A stretch of 64,000 nt of DNA. Origin: Eukaryota sp. GEM-RC1 (lineage: Eukaryota). The notes beneath the pieces are model-generated. The model worked only from the letters and a program-made list of their open reading frames with translations. It was not told the DNA's origin and did not search any database. The stretch lies in assembly GCA_040285855.1 (NCBI GenBank), contig JAUFOQ010000004.1:1302001-1366000 (forward strand), written 5' to 3'. The position numbers and the translations under genes are program-made. Below are positions 48,575 to 60,100 of this stretch, one piece after another (the stretch's first letter is position 1; each line of letters opens with the position of its first letter).

Positions 48575-49034
48575 CAGGGCCTAGAAAAATTGAATTGCCA
48601 ATACAATTATTTCAATACATTGGTATGAAACATTGATTGGCGCCAATTTAGAACATTGAAACATTGACTGGCTCAACATAAATCATCGAAACATTGATTG
48701 ATATAATATTCAAAAATTGCAACATTGGCCAATTATATTTTGCGAATTATCCTATTTCACTCAACACTGGAAATCACAATACCAATATGCAGCTGATGTA
48801 GATAGTCGTTTTAACATGTTCTTTATGAACAAAAACATAACTTGTATGATTTGGCTGTTCTACTACTAGTAGTAGTGGTACTTGAAACATGGGACCAATA
48901 TCAAACATTCAAGCATCGTTTCGACCAATATCTAACATTCAAACACTGATTGGTTTCATTTGAAACATTGAAATATTGATTGGTTCAATTTGAGACACTG
49001 ACATTGGCAATCAATTCAATTTTTCCAGGCCCTG
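48575..49034. mobile_element. 460-bp MITE with hAT-like CAGGG termini
   Basis: 23-bp TIR CAGGGCCT(A/G)GAAAAATTGAATTG with 1 mismatch; many internal GAAACATTGA/CAATA repeats. No 8-bp TSD recognisable. Confidence 0.8.
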
Positions 49035-49126
49035 AAAAGGACCTTTTTAGATTCCAGGTACTGAATGATCCCCAAGACAAGACTTTTTCTTCAAAATTTC
49101 TTCACTATCTCCTTTATCTCTTTTTA

Positions 49127-49414
49127 ATGCAATCAACCGGTCTACCTGGAGGATCCATTTCCCGTAATCACGATGAACCCGATGTTAAAGAAGCTGTTGA
49201 GTTCGCCATGGAACATCTAAATCTCATGTCAAATAGTCTGAATCCTCACATTTTGGATTCAGTTGTTGACGCTTCTTCCCAAGTCGTTGCTGGTACTAAC
49301 TACCACCTTACATTAAAAACTACAAGAGGAACCGCATCTGAATGTCACAAGTTTCAGGTTTTCAAGTCTCTTACTGGCGCAATGGAGCTTACCAACCATC
49401 AGGTTGTTTTCTAG
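49127..49414 (+). CDS. Cystatin (papain-family cysteine protease inhibitor), 95 aa
   Basis: N-terminal PGG, helix DVKEAVEFAMEHLN and the canonical QVVAGTNY loop. ATG at 49127. Confidence 0.9.
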   Translation: MQSTGLPGGSISRNHDEPDVKEAVEFAMEHLNLMSNSLNPHILDSVVDASSQVVAGTNYHLTLKTTRGTASECHKFQVFKSLTGAMELTNHQVVF

Positions 49415-49448: not shown

Positions 49449-49855
49449 TTATTCTACTCTTGTTTTACATAGAGGACATTCCGGGTGCTTCTTCAACCAC
49501 TTACTTATACATCGTCTGTGGAAATAGTGATCACACATACTCAATCGCAAGACAGTATGCCCTTTTTCATCATATCTAGACAAATTGTACATTGTTGATC
49601 CAAACATTTAGAGAGTTTGGTAGACGACATGCTCTTGATCTGAGCAGTAGTTAGTCCTAGTCTCAAACTAGTAGAGGGTTCTGCAATTTCTGGTAAATCC
49701 AATTCACGATCAGAAAGATATATGAACACATCTTCCTCATCATCAACAGTTACTGGTTCAGGGTAACTTGTATCTACTTCACTGTCAACGTATACTCCAG
49801 CATCAAAGTTTGAGTCATCATTGAGATACCAATCGTTCATTAGAAATCCTTGCAC
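49449..49855 (-). CDS. RING-H2 E3 ubiquitin ligase-like protein (one frameshift; start uncertain)
   Basis: GLTTAQIKSM...CTICLD, then after a shift near 49560 HTVLRLSMCDHYFHRRCISKWLKKHPECPLCKTRVE* (TAA 49449-49451): a C3H2C3 pattern. Confidence 0.88.
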
Positions 49856-49979: not shown

Positions 49980-50303
49980 CTAGTCTTTCCATTCTTTACA
50001 TTGGCTACTTGAACCTACTTCCTTGCAGCAGATCTCCTTTTCACATTCTAAATGTGAGCTTTTCTCATATTCTTTAGGACGTGCAATCTTTTCCTTTTGA
50101 ACTGGTTCGCATACTACTTCCTCCTGTTGAACTTTTGTACGATGAACTGGTTCGCATACTGTTCTGCACACTATCTCTGGTTCACAAGGAACACATACGG
50201 GTCGTTCTCTTGGTTTGCAGTCGGGATCAGCTGTTTGTGATAGATGAGCGTCTTCTCTTCTCTCACTGCGAGTTCTGTCAACAATATCTCGGCGTTCAGA
50301 CAT
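49980..50303 (-). CDS. Small Cys/Glu/Pro/Val-rich protein with VCEPV-type repeats
   Basis: 107-aa ATG-initiated ORF with VCVPCEPE, VCEPVH, VCEPVQ; AATAAA ~15 nt after the stop. Confidence 0.6.
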   Translation of the reverse strand: MSERRDIVDRTRSERREDAHLSQTADPDCKPRERPVCVPCEPEIVCRTVCEPVHRTKVQQEEVVCEPVQKEKIARPKEYEKSSHLECEKEICCKEVGSSSQCKEWKD

Positions 50304-50344
50304 TTTGGTGTAGTTTAGATTGTTTTTTCGTCAATAATATCTAG

Positions 50345-50470
50345 CAGGTATCTCTTTGTCTTCAAAAACATATCTTTTTCCAATAACTTCTGGAATGAAT
50401 GTGAATCCGAAGATTCAATAATGCTACAGAGTCACTGTAGTAAATAAAGGCTATGACTATGACTATGACA
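50345..50470 (-). ncRNA. Candidate Fanzor omegaRNA scaffold / element right end
   Basis: Directly 3' of the Fanzor stop, three consecutive hairpins on the minus strand: CTACAG-tgact-CTGTAG (50440-50424), TGAATC-TTCG-GATTCA (50417-50402, cUUCGg tetraloop) and TTCCA-N8-TGGAA (50395-50378). Position matches Fanzor/TnpB guide RNAs; boundaries are estimates. Confidence 0.55.
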
Positions 50471-52600
50471 AATAACTGGGTCTAACTCCTAGACCCCGCT
50501 CCAAATGATGCTCCACAATGGTCTTGATGTTGATACATGCTAACTTGTTACGATTCCAAATCTTGGCGCTACCATGACATTCTTCTCTACATTCTTGGGA
50601 CTTGCATCTCAACAAAGCGTGACACTTTACCAGAGGTTTCTTCTCTCTTTTCCATGGTTTTGGATTACTGATTTCTTTGAACACTTTGACTGGCTTCCAA
50701 CAAGTAGGACACTTTGAAGACGTGTAACTCTCATCTACGAGAACAAGGTTGTAACCATTTCTCTTAAAGAAGTTTCTCCAACCCACACCTCTACTTGATC
50801 GGAGATGTTTTAGGTTCTGCCTTTTATTACCATTGTCACCAAACATCAATACACTGTCATTTTTATTCCATCCTTTTGCAGTCATATTTTTCGACAACTT
50901 ACTTTCTGTTTTTTGAATATGGACGTATCTTTGCATTTTTGAATGCGCCATATCATCAAACAGTAGTAATCAAATGTTGATTCAATAACTGTAAGTTTGG
51001 AACCCATATAGTCATAGAATGTGTCATAAAGAGTGGACTTCGAATTTTCTTTCGACAATGTTGACTCTTCTTGTTCAACTGTTTTTCCATCTTGGAGAAT
51101 GAATTCTTTTTTCTTTCCCCTTCTAAACTTTTGATGGACCCTTGACCATCTGGACCATTCTGTCTCTGTCAATCTTAGCCACTCGTATTCTTTGTCTCTT
51201 CTTTCTCGTGCTTTTTGTTCAGGAAATGGCCTATTTACTTTCTCTGAACAAAAATAGAGTAAATCTGTTTTTCCAGGATCAATAAAAACCTTTGTTTTCA
51301 ATGAAAACTCTTCAACATCATAGTCTTGAACATATTCTTCTTTACTGGAGAACTTTGCACTGTCTGGTTTAAAGGACATTCCCACACAGTCCTCTCTGGT
51401 AAGTTCAACACAAGCAGAGAAACCATCAGTTTTAATGGTATTGTTAAACTTATAACCTTTCTTTATAAATGGACGATTAAAGTTGAAAAATGGGACCACA
51501 ATTGATTTTGTTCAGCAGGAGACATGTGTGCAATTTCATTCTTTGTATTCCAATCAGACATTTTCTTCTTGACATTCACTTGTTGTGTTGACAAAGTGGA
51601 ACGTAATATTCGCCAAAGACCTTGTGTGTCTATTTCAAAAAGCCTGGTGTGACGTGACGAACAATCGGAATTACATTGTAAGCACTTGCACCTTCACTTT
51701 CAAGATAGTTATTTATTTGAATCGCAGATTTAATAAAGGATTGAGGATGTTCACGAACTGATTTAAGTAGAGATTTAACGACTTTCTTTTTATAAACACC
51801 ATTAGCATTTTGAATATCAATTGATGGTGGGAAGAGAACATCAATAAAATATTTATCTCTAAACAATCCTTCAACATAGTCGTTAGTTGCCCACAGAAGT
51901 TTAATTTTACCTGCAATGTTCAAACTTCTATTACTGTCGTCTTGAAGAATTTCTGTATTTCATCTTTGAATAAATTGTTTTATTTCTACAGTTGTTTTTG
52001 GAACGTCATTTCTGTTACCTTCGAGAAAGACATTTGTAACTTGTCTAAGTCTCCAACGAAAAACAGACTGTTCTTTTTTTGACATTTTCTCTTCTTGATC
52101 AGTCTTTTGAAAATAAACATTAATAAATTTGTCAATGTATTGAGCATAACGCATTTTAATATTGGTGTCCAAATTTGTTTTGATAGTTTCACCAACCATT
52201 GCCATAATTCGTGAGGAACGAGCAGCTGGAAAGAGTGTAAATCCTCCATTGTTGAGCATTACTTGTTTGTATTCCTCTAAAACAAAGTTTTTCAACTGTT
52301 CATTAAATGTAGGAGGTCGTCCTTGAGGTAATTCAATCTCATGATGTTCAGCAGAGATGTATCTTAACAGAGTTTGAATATGTTCTACTTCTTTTCTTGT
52401 AATTAAAGGTAATTTTTCACCATTCTTATCCATGTGTAATAAAAACAGCTTCAAACAATAGGAAGTGTGCATTCCAAGTTTGTGAACTAATGGAGCATAA
52501 TAATCGAGTAATAACGTTAATCCAAAATGTTTGACAATAGACTTTGGTGTAGTTTTATGTGTTACAAAAGTTGGACGAACGATTTTATTTGATTGAAACA
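50463..52600 (-). pseudogene. Fanzor1: Fanzor1 (eukaryotic TnpB-family RNA-guided RuvC nuclease) domain
   Basis: N-terminal THKTTPKSI..HTSYCLKLFLLH..LPLI..IKTNLDTNIKMRY; YKFNNTIKTDGFS; RuvC-I FIDPG; FGD then rearranged RuvC-II VDESYTSSKCPTC; zinc finger CPTC...C.SQEC; RuvC-III WNRNKLACINI; terminal RPSYL. Three homopolymer frameshifts and one in-frame TGA (51960-51962). Confidence 0.93.
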
Positions 52601-53330
52601 ATAAAAACAACTTCAATGCTATTACACTATCTTTGAAGCAATAGTTTACAACTTCTTGAGGTCTTTCATCAACACAATCAATAGGCAATAAGTGGTGAAA
52701 TTCGTCATGAAGACGTCCTTTAGATTCGTTTAATAAAAACCAACTTAATGACCTTAAAGACTTTGAACATTTTGAAACAATAAATTGCTTAGCATAAACG
52801 TATGAATCACAGACAATTCTACCAGCCCATTAAGAACAAACATTTTGCCATAGAGATGATAAATGAGATTTAGTTGTTTCATCTAGCATTGGTTCTGGAA
52901 AGTCGACTCCAAGTGTAACAATCCTTTTGCCTAAAACAACATTAACGAAGTCAGTTATGTTAAATCCAGTTAAAACTGATGGATTTTTATCATTCAAATA
53001 GTTGACAAAAACTCTAGTAACTGTTTTTCGTCTTCAAAAAATCGAAGGTTTCTACAATCAGGTGGCAGTTCAACATCAGATTCATGAGTCAACTCTAAAG
53101 TTGCAACAAAATTGTCTTGAAGGAAAAATTGATCTTTTATAAAATGACCAAACACTCCAGAAATCATAAATACTTGTTGGTTTTGAATCCACAGTTCTCT
53201 TTCTGCATCACTTTTCATTTTGAGAGATCCATTCTCGTTCTTTCTTTGATCATCCAACTCCTCTGTAAGTGTTTCTGCAGGGATTTGATCAATTTCTCTA
53301 GTTTCAATATCAAAAGACAATATTGAACAA
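52600..53330 (-). pseudogene. Family-B DNA polymerase 3'-5' (DEDDy) exonuclease domain, in frame with Fanzor
   Basis: ExoI ILSFDIET; FEDEKQLLEF; ExoII-like NPSVLTGFNITDF; GRIVCDSY; SLRSLSWFLLNESK; ExoIII NYCFKDSVIALKLF, which sits in the same uninterrupted ORF (51960..52688) as the Fanzor N-terminus. No polymerase palm motifs follow. Confidence 0.85.
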
Positions 53331-53984
53331 TGATTAGAGTTATTTGGTAATTGGGAATGTTTGAGAAACTCAATCATTGGTTTTTTAGGAGGTTTCAAAC
53401 TCTTTGTCGCATTTGATACTCCACTTGCTTTTGGTTTGGTGGTTTTGCTTTTGGCAACTGTTGTCTTTCTATTACCTGTTGCTGCTGTTGTTTCAGTGGT
53501 GTCAGATGACTCAATTGTTTCTGTTGTTTCTGTTGTATCTGTTGTATCAGGTTTCTCACAAGCAGCAACATTTATTTTTGGAGTTGGTAAATGTATTTCT
53601 GGAAGATCTGTTAACTCTGGACGACTAAAGTTTTGATAACTTTCTTGAAATAATTCTTCAGCTTCTTCCAGCGCTTGTTCAATCATTTTTAACTTCAAAA
53701 GACGTTTCTTTTCCGGTTAGATAAATTTCCAGGTAAACTTTTGAGAAAGTTTTGATAAGTGAGCTTTGACACCGTTTCCTTGTAACTACTATCATCTACC
53801 ATTGTTTCAGGAGTTAAACTTTCATATTCTGCTGTTAGAGTTGTACACTGCACAGGTTGCTTAACAGGTGATTCAATCTCATCAGAATAAAACTCATTTA
53901 ACATACCTTGGGCATGAGTACATACATATTGTCGGTATTCATCAGGGTGATCTTCATCAGGGTGAGTAGTAACGATTTGAGACG

Positions 53985-54620
53985 GTATTTGTTTTCTCAT
54001 TTCTAATGCATTATAAACAACACAATTAGAGACTTTAGACAGAATTTCGAAAAGATTTGTTGATGTTGATTCACACTCGACAATTTAATTCATATACAGT
54101 AGAATAAATAGACCACAGTCATTGAGAGTTTGGACTTGTTGAACTGGTACTCTAGCTATGTAGCTGAAATTTGCCATATCAAACAGGAATTGCTGTAATT
54201 GTGAAATGACGGTGTCAATACGTGATAAAGTGTTAGAAAACTGAGAATTTTGATCTTCTGTGCACATTGAGTCAATAGAGAAGTATTGTTTGTTTTCAAT
54301 ATCACAGATTAACAGTGACCAGTGAGTGGCTGTTGTACCAAAGAGACCGTCATGTATTGGAAGTCACAAGAAACGTTTCTTACACTTTTTAGTGTGTCCT
54401 TTACTGTACTTTTCCATTGATAATTGAACCTCTCTAAATTGTTCAAACATTCTGTTTTATTGTGAAAGATTGATTGCATCTTGAATGTTGGCTACTTCAA
54501 AGAACTCGCATCGATTACTGTTTTCAACAATGTACTGACCAAAAAAGTCAATGACAGAATCATGAAGTAGTACATTTGGTTTCAGTGAGTCAATTTGATC
54601 AGATCTAAGAATATGAGGTC
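53985..54620 (-). pseudogene. Ulp1/SENP (peptidase C48, clan CE) cysteine protease domain at the N-terminal part of the Fanzor polyprotein
   Basis: One frame reads LRSDQIDSLKPNVLLHDSVIDFFGQYI...LPIHDGLFGTTATHWSLLICDIENKQYFSIDSM...PVQQVQTLNDCGLFILLY...LEMRKQI, giving His-Asp-Cys triad motifs. In-frame stops at 54457, 54364 and 54085. Confidence 0.85.
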
Positions 54621-55504
54621 TAGGACGAGATTGTGTTAGAATTCCACGATATTGATGTTGAATAAATTGATATTTTTGAGAAAATTTCTTTTTTTTGGAG
54701 GATATTTTCTAGATTGACGAGTTTTTCTTGTCCGATTTGAGTCCATAAGTTGATTGCGAGTAGTCAATGGCACCTGTCGAGTTTCATCAGGAGATGAAAT
54801 TACTGTTGAATGTTCGTATATTTCAGAAGTACCAGCAGATCTATTTATTTGTTGTTGAGAAGGGGTTAAATGAACTACAGTACTGTGTTCTTGAACACGT
54901 GCTTGAATGTTGTTTGAAAAGTACTCATGTACAATACTTAAAGCAAGTATAGCAAAAGGCGTAGGATGAGTAGTTCCTATTAGATTTAGCACTTGTTTTC
55001 TCATGTCAAAAGCATCATAATCGACATAATTTTGGACTTGAGACATAATTTCCTGGAAATTGTCTGATGTTGATGCCAAATGAACAAATCGTTATCTTAA
55101 CTTATTCCAATTCGTTCAACCATAAATACTCAATGAACTTTTTTCTTCAATAATCAATCTAGATTTGAGACAACACATTTTAATTCACATTACACATTAT
55201 ATTATTGAGAGTTTGCCAACTTCCATCAATTTCATTTCATTTAGAAACGAAACGTAAGTTTAGAATGGCTGAATGGAAAAACCGTATAGTGTTTTCCATA
55301 TATCGGAATATGCCTTTCTATTTCTCCGATTAATTGAGAAATTGTACAAGTTTGGTGTGACGGTTGATGTTGAAAAACGTAATCCTTTACCGGGTGGTGA
55401 TGAAGTCGTTTGGATTTAATCTTAGTACTGTTTGTTTGTTTTTGCAATTTCATAGTTTTGTAGGAAGGTTACCTTATTGGGTACCGAATAAAGTATATTG
55501 TATT

Positions 55505-55856
55505 TCATTTACATTTACAAAACACAAATCTCAGATCCTCATCTAAAAAACGGGGTTTATGATCAGTCAGTGAAATAAATGCATTTGCAGAAGTTGATAA
55601 CTGACAGACACTAACTAAAGTATCTAAACTATGATCCTTCTGTCCATCACCGAACAACTTACCTAAAATTGAATTAAAATATCTGTGCATTGAACGACAC
55701 AACGCAAACGTTAACCTACGCAACCAAAAATTTTCATTGAAAACTTTACCGCACTCAGAACACTATTTACCAAAGGAAGTTAATAAACCTCGTGCAGCTG
55801 GTCCAATATTACATCGCAAACGGTTGAAGCACAAAAGAATTGTACCTATCAACATT
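55505..55856 (-). mobile_element. Short remnant of an RLE retroelement C-terminus
   Basis: IGPAARGLLTSFGK*CSECGKVFNENFWLRRLTFALCRSM resembles the G.LG..A...L....FW..R.S.AL tail of RLE domains. Confidence 0.4.
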
Positions 55857-55899
55857 CAATTGGTTAATTAAGTGACAGTACTTTGTATTTTTTCCTTTT

Positions 55900-56880
55900 T
55901 CAGCCACTTCAAGAGCAGAAAAATCATCATCAAATTTTTTTGGAAATTGATCCTCATCTTGGTGGTATTGGTTGTACTTCATCTAAATGGTATGGTGGTA
56001 AGAATTTTGTCTTTGAGTTCTATAGACGATACCCGAGTGAAAACACTCTTCTTGTTTCTACAAGTAGCTTTTTCTTGGAAAATTTGAGATTGTAAAATTC
56101 GACTTGGCCTGGCCAAAGAAAACAATCTAGCGTTCTCAATTTGTTTAATCGATTTGAAGGAGAAGTTCCTCAGTTGATTTGATTAACCAAATTCCACAGA
56201 TTTATGGTTTGTTGTTGAATGATCATCGATGGAATACAATATTTAGATTTCGATGTTTCTTGTTACCTAAGGATCTTGAATGTCAATGTGGTAAATTAGT
56301 TATTTTTCCTCACATTTTGAGTTGTAACCGTTTCATTGCATATCGAACTTGCATTCATGATGTTGTCAGAGATCAAATTCATAAGTGCTACAAATTCGAA
56401 TCTTTTGTTGAGCCACTGTTGAGATAACCTGAGATCAATAATTTAAAAAATAGTGATTCTGATAGGACTTTTGGTAAAAAAGAGCTGATGTCAACGTTCC
56501 ATCACTCAATGATGAAATGACGGTTGCTGATGTGATTACTGTGGATGTTTGCAAACAAAAGTGTATCTAAAAATGTAAACAATGAAGTGTCTTCCCTTAA
56601 TTTTTCAGAACAATTTAAGAGAAACAAATACGAAGCTCCTTTGACTGCTCTCAAACATACTAGACGTGTTTAATACAAATTCTGTCATTTTGCAATTTCA
56701 ATTTATGGTCGACTTGGTATAGATGTTCTTTGTCTTCTCTATGATTTTGAGACAGTTGTCAAAAAAAGGATGAACAAGAAATTTGAGTTTGACTTTTGGT
56801 GGAATTGTACTGTATTTACAATAATTAAAACAATTCCTATTATGATTTTGAAAGTTCTATTAGATGTCAGTATTTTCAAT
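55900..56880 (+). mobile_element. Degenerate 3' part of an RLE-type (CRE/R2-like) non-LTR retrotransposon
   Basis: CQCG..PHILSC..RTCIHDVVRDQI (CCHC knuckle plus RHD-like motif), ESFVEPLL, RADV..VADVITVDVC, EQFKRNKYE, FAISIYGRLG, FDFWWN. Many stops and frameshifts; no RT core visible. Confidence 0.7.
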
Positions 56881-57176
56881 GAAAAAAAAGCTGATGTGAA
56901 GCGACGATTATGGTTTAAATTATATGGTTTTAAATAAATTACAATTTTATGTAAATAAGTCTTATGTGTGTTTGTGCTGGATTTAAAGTTATTTGTATGG
57001 GGACTTTAACGTTACGTAAACTCATAAATGAAATAATAATTTCAAGAATAAGTAAGATCAAACGAGAGAAAAACCATGACTAAATGCAGTCAAAATCTAC
57101 CAATATAAATTAAAAACAAATCGTAATATACAAGCAAAAAACTATAAAAAACACTGACAACAACACTCAGAAACGT

Positions 57177-60100
57177 TTACCTTCGGAAACTTTGACCACT
57201 TTTAGGCCTATTCAATTGCACAGGTGGCAGAGAAGAACTCGCACTGGATGGTTTTGACCTTGATTTTTGACCTGTTGGCTTAGTATTAAACGATAGTGGA
57301 TTAACAACTCCCACATTTGGATTTCGATTAAATACTTTGTTATAACCTTCCTCTCTATTAACTAACTCCATCTTAAAGAACTGCATTTCCTGAATAGCTT
57401 TACTCAAATCACGTTCTTTTTGAACCAGTTTTGATTGCAATTGATTAATCAGCTCCAAATCATCGGCACGTGATTCCCTATTAGTAATTTTGTCTTGTAG
57501 AATATCAATCTTCTCTAATAAAACATGTAACTGTTGATCATGTTTGGTTTGAGCTTCTCTCATTTGACTGTACATTTGATCAACTCTTCCTCGATTAGAC
57601 TCAACTAAAGCCGCAATCTCAATCTGATGACGCTTCTTGAGCTCTTCCATCTCAATCACATGAGTATCACCATCTTTTGCCAACTGCGATTTGAAATTCT
57701 CTTCTGTCGATTCCAAATCTCCTTTAATTCTGCCTAAATCCTCAGTCAAAACCAAAATTCTACTCTCCAGCTCTTCACCCCGTTTCTTATACTTTGTCAA
57801 CTTAGTCTCTAGAGCAGCATATCGTTCCTTATGTTGGTCAACAATGTTCCTGTATTCTTCTTTCTTCTTCTTTAGTAGAGCTTCACTTGCAGCTTGAAGT
57901 TCTTCCCGTTGTCTGGCAAGTTCGCCCTTCATAATATTCTTGGCTGAATCATCGACTTGTAAGAGCTCTTCTTCCATAGTCCTTTTCAATGATTGTATAT
58001 TTTGTTCATTGCTCGTTTCAATTGCCCTAATCTGATCATCATAATAATCACGTACACGTTGCACTTCCAATCGTTGAACTTCTTCCATCTCATCCATTTG
58101 CTCTTGCCAGTTCTTATTGATCCTTTTAACTTCATCCTCATGGAAAGTATTCATTTCTTCTAGTTTGTTCTTCATTCTTGACTCATGGTCCTTCATCAAT
58201 TGTTCACTTCCAGCTAGTAATTCACGTTCTCGATCACTAAATGCTACAGCCATTTCTTGTTTTTCTTCCTTGAGAGAGGTCAGAAGTTTTTGAAGTCGCG
58301 AGACTTCTTCTTGGAGTCGTTGGAGTTCTTGGGCGTGTTTTTCTTTTATTTGCTTGTTTAGAGATTGAACACGTTGCTCGGAGTCAAGAGAAGTCGTGCG
58401 AAGGTTGTGTTCCAAAAGAGAAATTTCACCTTGGTAATAATTTTTCAAATCTGTCAATTCTTTTTCTTTTGAGTTTTGGAGATCTTGAAGTTCTTGTTTG
58501 TGCTGTTTACTGAGTTGTTCCAGACTGCTTTGATATTCCGAAATTTTAGTATTAAATTCAATTATTTTAGCTTCCAATTCTAAAATAATTCCTTTTGAAG
58601 CAATCAGTTCATCTGAGCTCTTCTGCAGTTCAATTTTAGTCTGATTGAGCTCTTTTTCCAGCTCAGTTGACTTAGATCTGTGAAAAGCCAACTCTTTCTC
58701 AACAGAGTTTAAAGTAGATTCAAGTTTAGAAGTTAACTTATTAGATGAAGTTGCTTTTTCCTTCCACAAGTCACGTTCAGACAACGCACCATTTAAAAGT
58801 TTTTGGGAATTTTCAAATTCTAGAGTCAACGAGTCGAATTTAGATGTAATATTAGTAACTCTATTTTGAAGTTCAATGGTTTCCTTATCTGAAAGAGACA
58901 ACTTCTTCGATAGCTGAGTGATTTTGTCTTGTAATTCCTCCATAGATTCAGTAGAATTCTGACTTATTCTATCGTACTTTTGCTTCCAAAACACTCAACT
59001 CTTCCCGTAGACTGTTAATCTCCTGGTCTTTAATTTTGGAGCTATTAGTTCCAGAAATCAAATCAGCTTCCAACTCAGTATTCCTAGAGTTTAATTTGGA
59101 AAGTTTCTCCATTGATGACGTCAGCTGATTCTGAAGTTCCTTGTAAGATTTGGAAAGTGATGAGTAATCAGATTCTATTGATTTCACTTTTGATTGAAGG
59201 TCGGAAACTGTCTGACTTTCACTGGAGTTTTGTTGTAAAAGATCCTGATACTGAACGTTGAGGTCTTGAAACCTGTCTTGTTCTTGACGCAATTGAGCAT
59301 CAAAATCTTTTTGTTGATTTTCAGATCTAGATTGACTTTCTTTCAAAAGGTTTTCTAATTTTGACACTTTTTGGTCCCAATCAGTTTGATTGTTGGAAAG
59401 GGATGATTTGACTGAGGAAAGCTCATTAATCAAGTTTGCCTTGTCAGTTTCTGTTTGTTTTAGTTTTTGAGCCAGCGAATCACGCTCTTTTTCTAAATTT
59501 GAAATTGAATGTTTTAAATCCAATATAGCATTGGATTTTTCAATACTTATAGCACTTTTCTCAGCACTAACATCAATCAACTGCGACTTCAAAGTTTCCA
59601 CCTCATTTTTTAAATTTTCAATATTCTTCAAAAGTCCAGTCTCAATCTTGACCTTCTCATCCAAGTCTCTCCCCAAATTTTCCATTCTCTTTCTCATTTC
59701 AACCAACTCCTTTTCATTTCCCTCAGAAGCAGTAGCCAAGGAATCCTTGAGATCAAGGTATTTAATCATCAACTCATTGTACTTTTGATTATGACTCTCA
59801 ATGAACCTCTGCAATTCCTCTTCATAACGCTTCTTCTCCCTACTTTCAACTTCCTTAACTGACTGAGAGCTAGCCTGAGTAGTACTAGCAAGATCAAGCC
59901 GTAGCTTTTCAACTGACTTCTCTGCACTTTCCCTACGTTTCACTTCATCTTCATATTTTCTCTTCAATTCATCAGACTGAGTTTTAGATGAGGACAAAGT
60001 CTTGGACCATTCCCGTTTGAGAGTGACCAATTCCGATTGGAGATTAGAGATAGTTTCAGAAGCAGTGGAGATTGCTTGTTTATGAGAGAGTGAACAAGAA

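Follow-up and report, generated by a model that had tools for sequence, protein, structure and literature searches.

The window analysed here is a stretch of 64,000 nt from Eukaryota sp. GEM-RC1 (assembly GCA_040285855.1, contig JAUFOQ010000004.1, positions 1,302,001 to 1,366,000), which carries on its minus strand a broken gene for a Fanzor1 nuclease preceded, in the same frame, by a 3′-5′ exonuclease of the family-B DNA polymerase (PolB) type and by Ulp1/SENP-type proteases. We have very little doubt that the fusion of exonuclease and Fanzor is real. A previous reading of this DNA from its letters only (the sequence-only reading) had proposed a decayed tripartite polyprotein of protease, exonuclease and Fanzor1. 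Judged from the predicted proteins of the relatives, the constant unit is the exonuclease-Fanzor core, with the protease as a variable extra. As a whole, and with a confidence that stays a little short of even, we read the stretch as a 5′-truncated and decayed copy of a dispersed multicopy element, whose intact protein would cut element-free alleles and trim the resulting ends, allowing repair to copy the element into the break.

The exonuclease-Fanzor core and its variable front end

In the DNA of the window, the junction between exonuclease and Fanzor lies inside a stop-free open reading frame (ORF; 51960-52829), so the fusion could be read without reconstruction, as had been claimed. A search with this ORF among proteins of 507-2,000 amino acids gave five matches in 1,033 candidates, all labelled GEM-RC1 or TZLM3-RCL, and the clusters of those five gave 21 further proteins. 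In total, 26 of the 213 proteins fetched match both the exonuclease and the Fanzor profiles (20 from TZLM3-RCL, four from TZLM1-RC and two from GEM-RC1), and copies of the element are dispersed over many contigs of these three isolates. Isolates with such labels belong to Skoliomonas, free-living metamonads of soda lakes (10.1101/2023.05.03.539051). A profile covering exonuclease and Fanzor was also run against 1.84 billion representative sequences, which gave 1,662 matches at E 0.001. The exonuclease was present in six of the best 150 of these, all six with Skoliomonas-isolate labels, including TZLM1-RC, and the remaining ones of the 150 were family fragments or ordinary Fanzors. Related loci were not found in viral contigs, metagenomes or prokaryote genomes, where 0 of 30 metagenome pattern matches gave a tblastn match.

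All three domains occur in a single chain in P0009, a predicted protein of 1,571 amino acids with protease, PolB exonuclease and Fanzor1, for which the matches of one PDB search were, by decreasing score, SpuFz1, SENP8 and Pol delta. The same domain order, with only part of the Fanzor, is found in P0005, P0008, P0021 and P0026, and protease plus exonuclease in P0004 and P0018. Relative to these proteins, the read-through of the window copy is 92% identical to P0004 (646 columns), 89% to P0018 (769 columns) and 43% to the full-length P0009 (1,112 columns). Each domain matched the family expected for it, that is, Peptidase_C48, DNA_pol_B_exo1 (through P0004) and SpuFz1 and PpFz1, the best PDB matches of the Fanzor part of the family profile.

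The exonuclease fragments of the window copy gave no Pfam match of their own; P0004 matched DNA_pol_B_exo1 at E 4e-14, and the best family member reached 3e-17. The best PDB match of the domain is Pol delta. The Asp residues of ExoII and ExoIII are kept in six of six database representatives, and the ExoI DxE in the five that cover that part. Because these acidic residues persist at 27-54% identity, the alignments place the catalysis of the exonuclease under selection. Similar divergence is found in the Fanzor part (identities of 23-54% among the seven representatives), and both sets of identities covary (rho 0.62, with pairs that are not independent). Moreover, the nine family RuvC cores, in a FastTree analysis of 91 cores (101 before the removal of 10 near-duplicates), fall 9/9 into one group with support 100 and deep internal branches. 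On the basis of this single RuvC clade and the covarying identities, exonuclease and Fanzor are taken as partners of long co-descent. In all seven representatives the Fanzor starts about 25 residues past ExoIII, at an about equal spacing.

The assignment to Fanzor1 was upheld by the whole fold, the DPG and Ealt motifs and the C4 zinc finger. An AlphaFold2 (AF2) model of the relative P0002 (123-row alignment, pLDDT 84, pTM 0.76) has the Fanzor1 fold with its REC, WED, RuvC and TNB insertions, and matches Fanzor1 structures, including SpuFz1, with TMt 0.81-0.83 and E 1e-28 to 1e-18, the next matches being PolB and Cas12 chains at E 1e-5 or weaker; in BFVD, it matches viral Fanzor-like proteins. 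Pfam gave a sub-threshold TNB match on 50463-50969. As for the RuvC fingerprints of Fanzors, DPG and Ealt (PMC10711439), the first one is found as FIDPG at 51286-51272 and the second one as ExxxxxxC, where the zinc finger follows the Glu at a distance of six residues; this holds for the window and for all complete relatives. The Fanzor1 motif of 2013 has RD as third residue (PMC3627910), a strict form which the window and the family lack: they carry RN, with the fragment P0184 (RD) as single exception. Among the 114 library matches with the zinc-finger motif, the third residue is D in 92, N in nine and unparsed in 13. We considered a nuclease-dead Fanzor on account of this Asn and rejected it, because the D-E-N triad is active in GtFz1, which cleaves with Asn as third RuvC residue, and D606N raises the activity of SpuFz1 (PMC11423790).

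In front of this core the architecture is modular. A Peptidase_C48 match above the Pfam cut-off (E 3.2e-8) covers 54085-54363, and the alignment contains the His-Asp/Asn-Cys triad and the oxyanion Gln. In the subfamily of the window copy (P0194-P0196 and P0198), the predicted proteins show the order leader, canonical 2A, protease 1, spacer, protease 2, linker, exonuclease and Fanzor1, the second protease being 45% identical to the first one. The proposed succession of protease, linker, exonuclease and Fanzor1 was recovered, and what had been taken for an N-terminal region proved to be the tail of the first protease unit plus a spacer. Other relatives are built differently: P0009 and P0021 are near-identical from the linker on, although their proteases, which both follow a 2A-like motif, share just 30% identity; P0191/P0188 have a 2A between protease tail and exonuclease; P0072/P0180 have a 2A followed by the exonuclease, without protease, and P0003/P0016 also lack it. 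With the protease doubled, swapped, absent or separated by a 2A, the tripartite arrangement could not be maintained as the conserved unit, which is exonuclease plus Fanzor. Among the fetched proteins, 11 have the motif GD(V/I)ExNPGP close to the start of the ORF and four more have a variant with His. This 2A ribosome-skip motif, which the sequence-only reading had not noted, is present in its canonical form in the close relatives P0194, P0195, P0196 and P0198 and absent from the truncated window copy.

SENP8 was the best PDB match of the protease in 3/3 types tested (E 4e-8 to 7e-6), by a narrow margin over Ulp1 and SENP2. SENP8 itself is a deNEDDylase. Of the two roles suggested in the sequence-only reading, a deSUMOylase/deNEDDylase or a self-processing protease, the latter becomes the weaker option since 2A motifs would give a non-proteolytic way of splitting the polyprotein. 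Two other N-termini were also observed, a DEAH helicase in frame ahead of exonuclease-Fanzor in P0016 (2,027 amino acids) and a DM10 domain ahead of a Fanzor fragment in P0031, which could represent gene capture, insertion into host genes or artefacts of the gene models.

A proposed cut-and-trim mechanism and its alternatives

The cycle that we propose would begin with 2A skipping, which would free the product from the leader and, in one subfamily, also from the protease. An omegaRNA transcribed from hairpins 3′ of the stop would run into the flanking DNA and guide the cutting of the empty site at ~16-21 nt from the target-adjacent motif (TAM). In SpuFz1, cleavage of the non-target strand falls 16-17 nt from the TAM (PMC10432273), so that the TAM-side 3′ end should bear a tail unmatched in the donor: the cut non-target strand would be a single-stranded 3′ tail of 16-17 nt, displaced by the guide. 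In the donor allele the TAM is followed by the element, which would deprive this tail of a continuous match there. The tail would then be chewed back by the tethered exonuclease towards the TAM duplex, the insertion point, which would block re-ligation and leave a primer for gene conversion, so that removal of the non-homologous tail would lift a block on homing. We infer the trimming step from the proofreading exonuclease of yeast Pol delta, the polymerase that is also the best PDB match here, which chews back invading 3′ ends and non-homologous tails (PMC9477423). In this line, the OMEGA nucleases TnpB and IscB cut empty sites and drive restoration by gene conversion (PMC13565253). The protease, as an accessory deNEDDylase or deSUMOylase, would have repair or silencing factors of the host as its targets, and would not be needed in cis.

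A candidate for the omegaRNA scaffold is offered by two hairpins located 20-60 nt 3′ of the Fanzor stop (50424-50440 and 50402-50417, with a cUUCGg loop). The fold of this region has a z of -3.2 on a 51-nt piece chosen post hoc and of -0.9 to -1.4 on three longer pieces, and ranks 15 among 1,280 sliding windows; the hairpin with the cUUCGg loop is the only such hairpin among the nine CTTCGG sites of the window. Rfam gave no match for the candidate and one chance-level match overall. The scaffold of SpuFz1 comprises ~75 nt between stop codon and right end (PMC10432273), and the hairpins found here are suggestive of an equivalent element.

A number of points weigh against this proposal. Cut off from its polymerase, a PolB exonuclease domain may have poor activity. 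Homing has been shown for TnpB and IscB, not for Fanzor (PMC13565253). The relatives are gene models whose domain joins were read at the protein level, and at least P0001 and P0042 look spliced across breaks. DLG or DIG replaces DPG in some subfamilies (P0188 and P0213, of a subfamily found in two isolates), and the 2A motifs of P0009 and P0072 have His for Glu, a variant described as very weak (PMC3708506). What the hairpins say about an omegaRNA is no more than suggestive, and defining the element ends, target-site duplications, TAM, guide and omegaRNA would take more than the single copy whose DNA was analysed. No transposase was found, and restorative homing presupposes excision.

The same anatomy, with its conserved active sites, would also fit a destructive cutter, where the exonuclease, without contributing to the copying of the element, degrades the cut ends and makes cleavage irreversible or mutagenic, or else attacks and destroys DNA that is invading or has been excised; engineered TREX2-Cas9 fusions do raise editing (PMC13370227). 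We hold this explanation to be unlikely, given that a dispersed multicopy element with many fragments fits selfish spread better than a domesticated defence gene, and that deletion of the empty site would not raise copy number.

Less probable again is that the exonuclease serves the transposition of its carrier, by trimming of donor ends, flaps or cDNA for a transposase or reverse transcriptase (RT) supplied in trans, and merely shares an ORF with Fanzor. Mobile elements do provide precedents, as DEDD exonucleases are accessory domains of P, piggyBac and long terminal repeat (LTR) elements (PMC3627910, PMC6338049), Ginger1, Mutator, NeSL and Utopia are known to carry Ulp1 domains (PMC2836005, PMC4640811), and 2A motifs, which alone do not guarantee activity, are typical of non-LTR ORF starts (PMC3708506); the window copy is moreover 5′-truncated, as retroposed copies often are. 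However, the exonuclease abuts the first Fanzor strand at near-constant spacing in 7/7 representatives with everything upstream swapped, and no 2A separates the two. Searches with the protease region revealed no fusion to RT or transposase within the limited lengths searched, and no RT was found in any fetched relative.

Some DEDD enzymes act on RNA. The exonuclease could mature the omegaRNA by shortening the 3′ end of the read-through transcript to guide length, since the omegaRNA runs at its 3′ end into the flanking DNA and requires trimming (PMC10432273). We give this little credence: all exonuclease matches are to proofreading domains of DNA polymerases, with none to RNase D or Rrp6, and ordinary Fanzors obtain mature guides without such a domain. 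Finally, it is very improbable that exonuclease and Fanzor lack functional coupling, as would be the case if gene prediction had merged neighbouring fragments or if a passenger exonuclease had been captured by chance. The window copy is indeed broken 11 times, the database proteins are unverified models, and chance fusions do occur, as the helicase and DM10 N-termini show. Yet no stop interrupts the junction in the DNA of the window, and this junction recurs in 26 proteins of three isolates with catalytic residues kept across deep divergence.

Beyond the cut-and-trim proposal, the family could constitute a Fanzor1 clade, specific to its lineage, which acquired the proofreading domain of a polymerase and thus turned into a homing enzyme that is RNA-guided and self-sufficient, trimming the displaced strand exactly to the insertion point and spreading a transposase-less, 2A-punctuated polyprotein with exchangeable deNEDDylase cassettes. 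This wider scenario we regard as doubtful; if true, such an enzyme would be a natural cut-and-trim genome editor.

The window copy and its surroundings

The six frame breaks in A/T runs and the five in-frame stops were recovered at the positions claimed, by three-frame translation and tblastn with relatives. With one X per break, 55091-50466 reads as 1,544 codons, of which ~1,529 follow from the ATG at 55046, in agreement with the ~1,530 announced. Compared with intact relatives, each of the six breaks lacks one base of an A or T homopolymer (5 bases instead of the fitting 6 in four runs, 8 instead of 9 in one and 4 instead of 5 in one).

Parts of the window copy, with the breaks and stops of its reading frame
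Feature	Position	Strand	Basis	Details
Tail of first Ulp1/SENP-type unit and spacer	54702..55091	-	84-88% amino acid identity to P0020 61-197 and P0194/P0196	
Second Ulp1/SENP8-like cysteine protease	54070..54633	-	Pfam Peptidase_C48, alignment, Atlas features and structure of the P0018 counterpart	His codon 54324-54322, Cys codon 54117-54115; stops at 54457, 54364 and 54085 break the domain
Spacer, short helix and Thr/Lys-rich linker	53331..54069	-	Alignment	Break near 53712; short helix conserved with P0009/P0016-type relatives
PolB-type DEDDy 3′-5′ exonuclease	52590..53330	-	Motifs and profile matches of relatives	Break near 53009, stop 52830; ExoI DxE 53311, ExoII Asp>Val 52946-52944, ExoIII YxxxD 52643-52629
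Full-length Fanzor1	50463..52589	-	Profile, alignment, AF2 model of relative	Stop 51960, breaks near 51640, 51489 and 50938; RuvC-I Asp 51280, RuvC-II Glu 50732, RuvC-III Asn 50549; C4 zinc finger present
Candidate omegaRNA scaffold	50380..50462	-	Two hairpins	
In-frame stops	TAA 54457-9, TGA 54364-6, TAA 54085-7, TAA 52830-2, TGA 51960-2	-		
Frame breaks	near 54690, 53712, 53009, 51640, 51489, 50938	-	tblastn with relatives	

The decayed state of this copy, as had been suggested, was supported. It starts just past the catalytic Cys of protease 1, with the 5′ break at ~55093, and the leader, the 2A motif and the catalytic part of protease unit 1 are missing; the residues further upstream in P0020 and P0194/P0196 (2A and first protease) find no separate counterpart in the window. 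A 125-nt repeat at a spacing of 1,004 nt is consistent with tandem protease units. The five stops and the ExoII change, which were not seen in the relatives covering those positions, point to real decay, and the truncation inside the first protease unit together with the loss of the ExoII Asp makes the copy likely dead. The six frameshifts, in turn, are likely sequencing errors, because each of the six lacks a single base, in most cases with 5 in place of 6, and the same breaks are found again in other copies (50938 in P0001 and P0201, 53712 in P0020 and P0193), a recurrence that shared descent would also explain. A window-wide bias towards one-base losses had to be discarded as proof of sequencing error, given that the control failed: among 16 shifts between neighbouring long ORFs, some of which may be introns or separate genes, eight were -1 and eight +1. 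Recoding of stop codons was rejected as well, since the five stops align to different residues in close relatives (Tyr, Ile, Lys, Glu and Cys) and standard stops end the neighbouring genes.

No second copy of the element was found in the 64-kb window, and no inverted repeat joining both ends in 50100-57200, where the 5′-truncated copy lies. An endogenous giant-virus context was rejected, as the flanks contain a cystatin, a RING gene, a coiled-coil gene and an RSE1/DDB1/CPSF1 propeller gene. On the same strand as the element and some 400 bp upstream, 55500-57000 (-) contains a decayed 3′ part resembling a non-LTR retrotransposon of the restriction-like endonuclease (RLE) type, with a motif that we take to be RLE-like and two fragments without Pfam match; this remnant may have caused the 5′ truncation. 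At the other end, three tandem GTCATA units run from the last codon across the Fanzor stop (50453-50470, minus strand), and directly downstream lies a 107-amino acid ORF rich in Cys, Glu and Lys (49980-50303, minus strand), beyond which are a RING-finger gene split by a frameshift (49449-49840, minus strand) and the cystatin (48980-49414, plus strand; Pfam E 1e-10). Within positions 1-44337, multi-kilobase genes for large proteins, probably bound to membranes, are repeated in at least four copies, direct and inverted, which are 75-100% alike; frameshifts are numerous in them, and some in-frame stops are common to near-identical copies.

Novelty and comparison with known systems

An exonuclease-fused Fanzor1 clade has apparently not been described. 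No natural Fanzor or TnpB fusion of this kind was found among the papers listed on Fanzor with Ulp1, exonuclease or DEDD and on TnpB fusions, as judged by titles and the starts of abstracts and with subscription papers mostly outside, nor any listed paper with both Fanzor and Skoliomonas. The word exonuclease is absent from the main texts of four Fanzor surveys and one review, whose supplements could list such proteins. The clade bears on the role of Fanzors for eukaryotic elements: an exonuclease kept on Fanzor down to ~25-30% identity points to end-processing after the cut as a limiting step. A comparison of wild type and exonuclease-dead protein on one substrate would be a clean test, and since intact-looking natural sequences exist (P0002, P0009, P0017 and P0188), the window copy does not need to be repaired for it.

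With SpuFz1, PpFz1 and GtFz1 the family shares the fold, DPG and Ealt, the C4 zinc finger and candidate hairpins 3′ of the stop, and with GtFz1 also the D-E-N triad, but it adds a PolB exonuclease fused to the first Fanzor strand and protease and 2A modules upstream, reaching 940-2,027 amino acids against ~600-820 in the other full-length matches among the best 150 of 1,662. From proofreading family-B polymerases it retains ExoI DxE, ExoII NxxxFD and ExoIII YxxxD, with a Fanzor instead of the polymerase domain after ExoIII; the donor of the domain may have been the Pol delta of the host or a viral PolB. The His...Asp/Asn...Gln-x-Cys protease of the C48 type is common to SENP8/NEDP1 and to the Ulp1 domains of Ginger1, Mutator, NeSL and Utopia, mobile elements like this family; in those elements it is carried on a transposase or RT, whereas here it sits on Fanzor, in tandem, swapped or absent depending on the subfamily. 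Similarly, the 2A/StopGo motif near the ORF start is that of non-LTR retrotransposons and RNA viruses; in the former it precedes the apurinic endonuclease (APE) and RT, and here the protease or exonuclease-Fanzor, with one subfamily having it between protease and exonuclease. Genome engineers have been adding exonucleases to guided nucleases, and TREX2-Cas9 likewise tethers a guided cutter to a 3′-5′ exonuclease. In contrast with that engineered fusion, the family described here arose naturally: its exonuclease derives from PolB, its junction has evolved, and the fusion is conserved between subfamilies that have diverged deeply.

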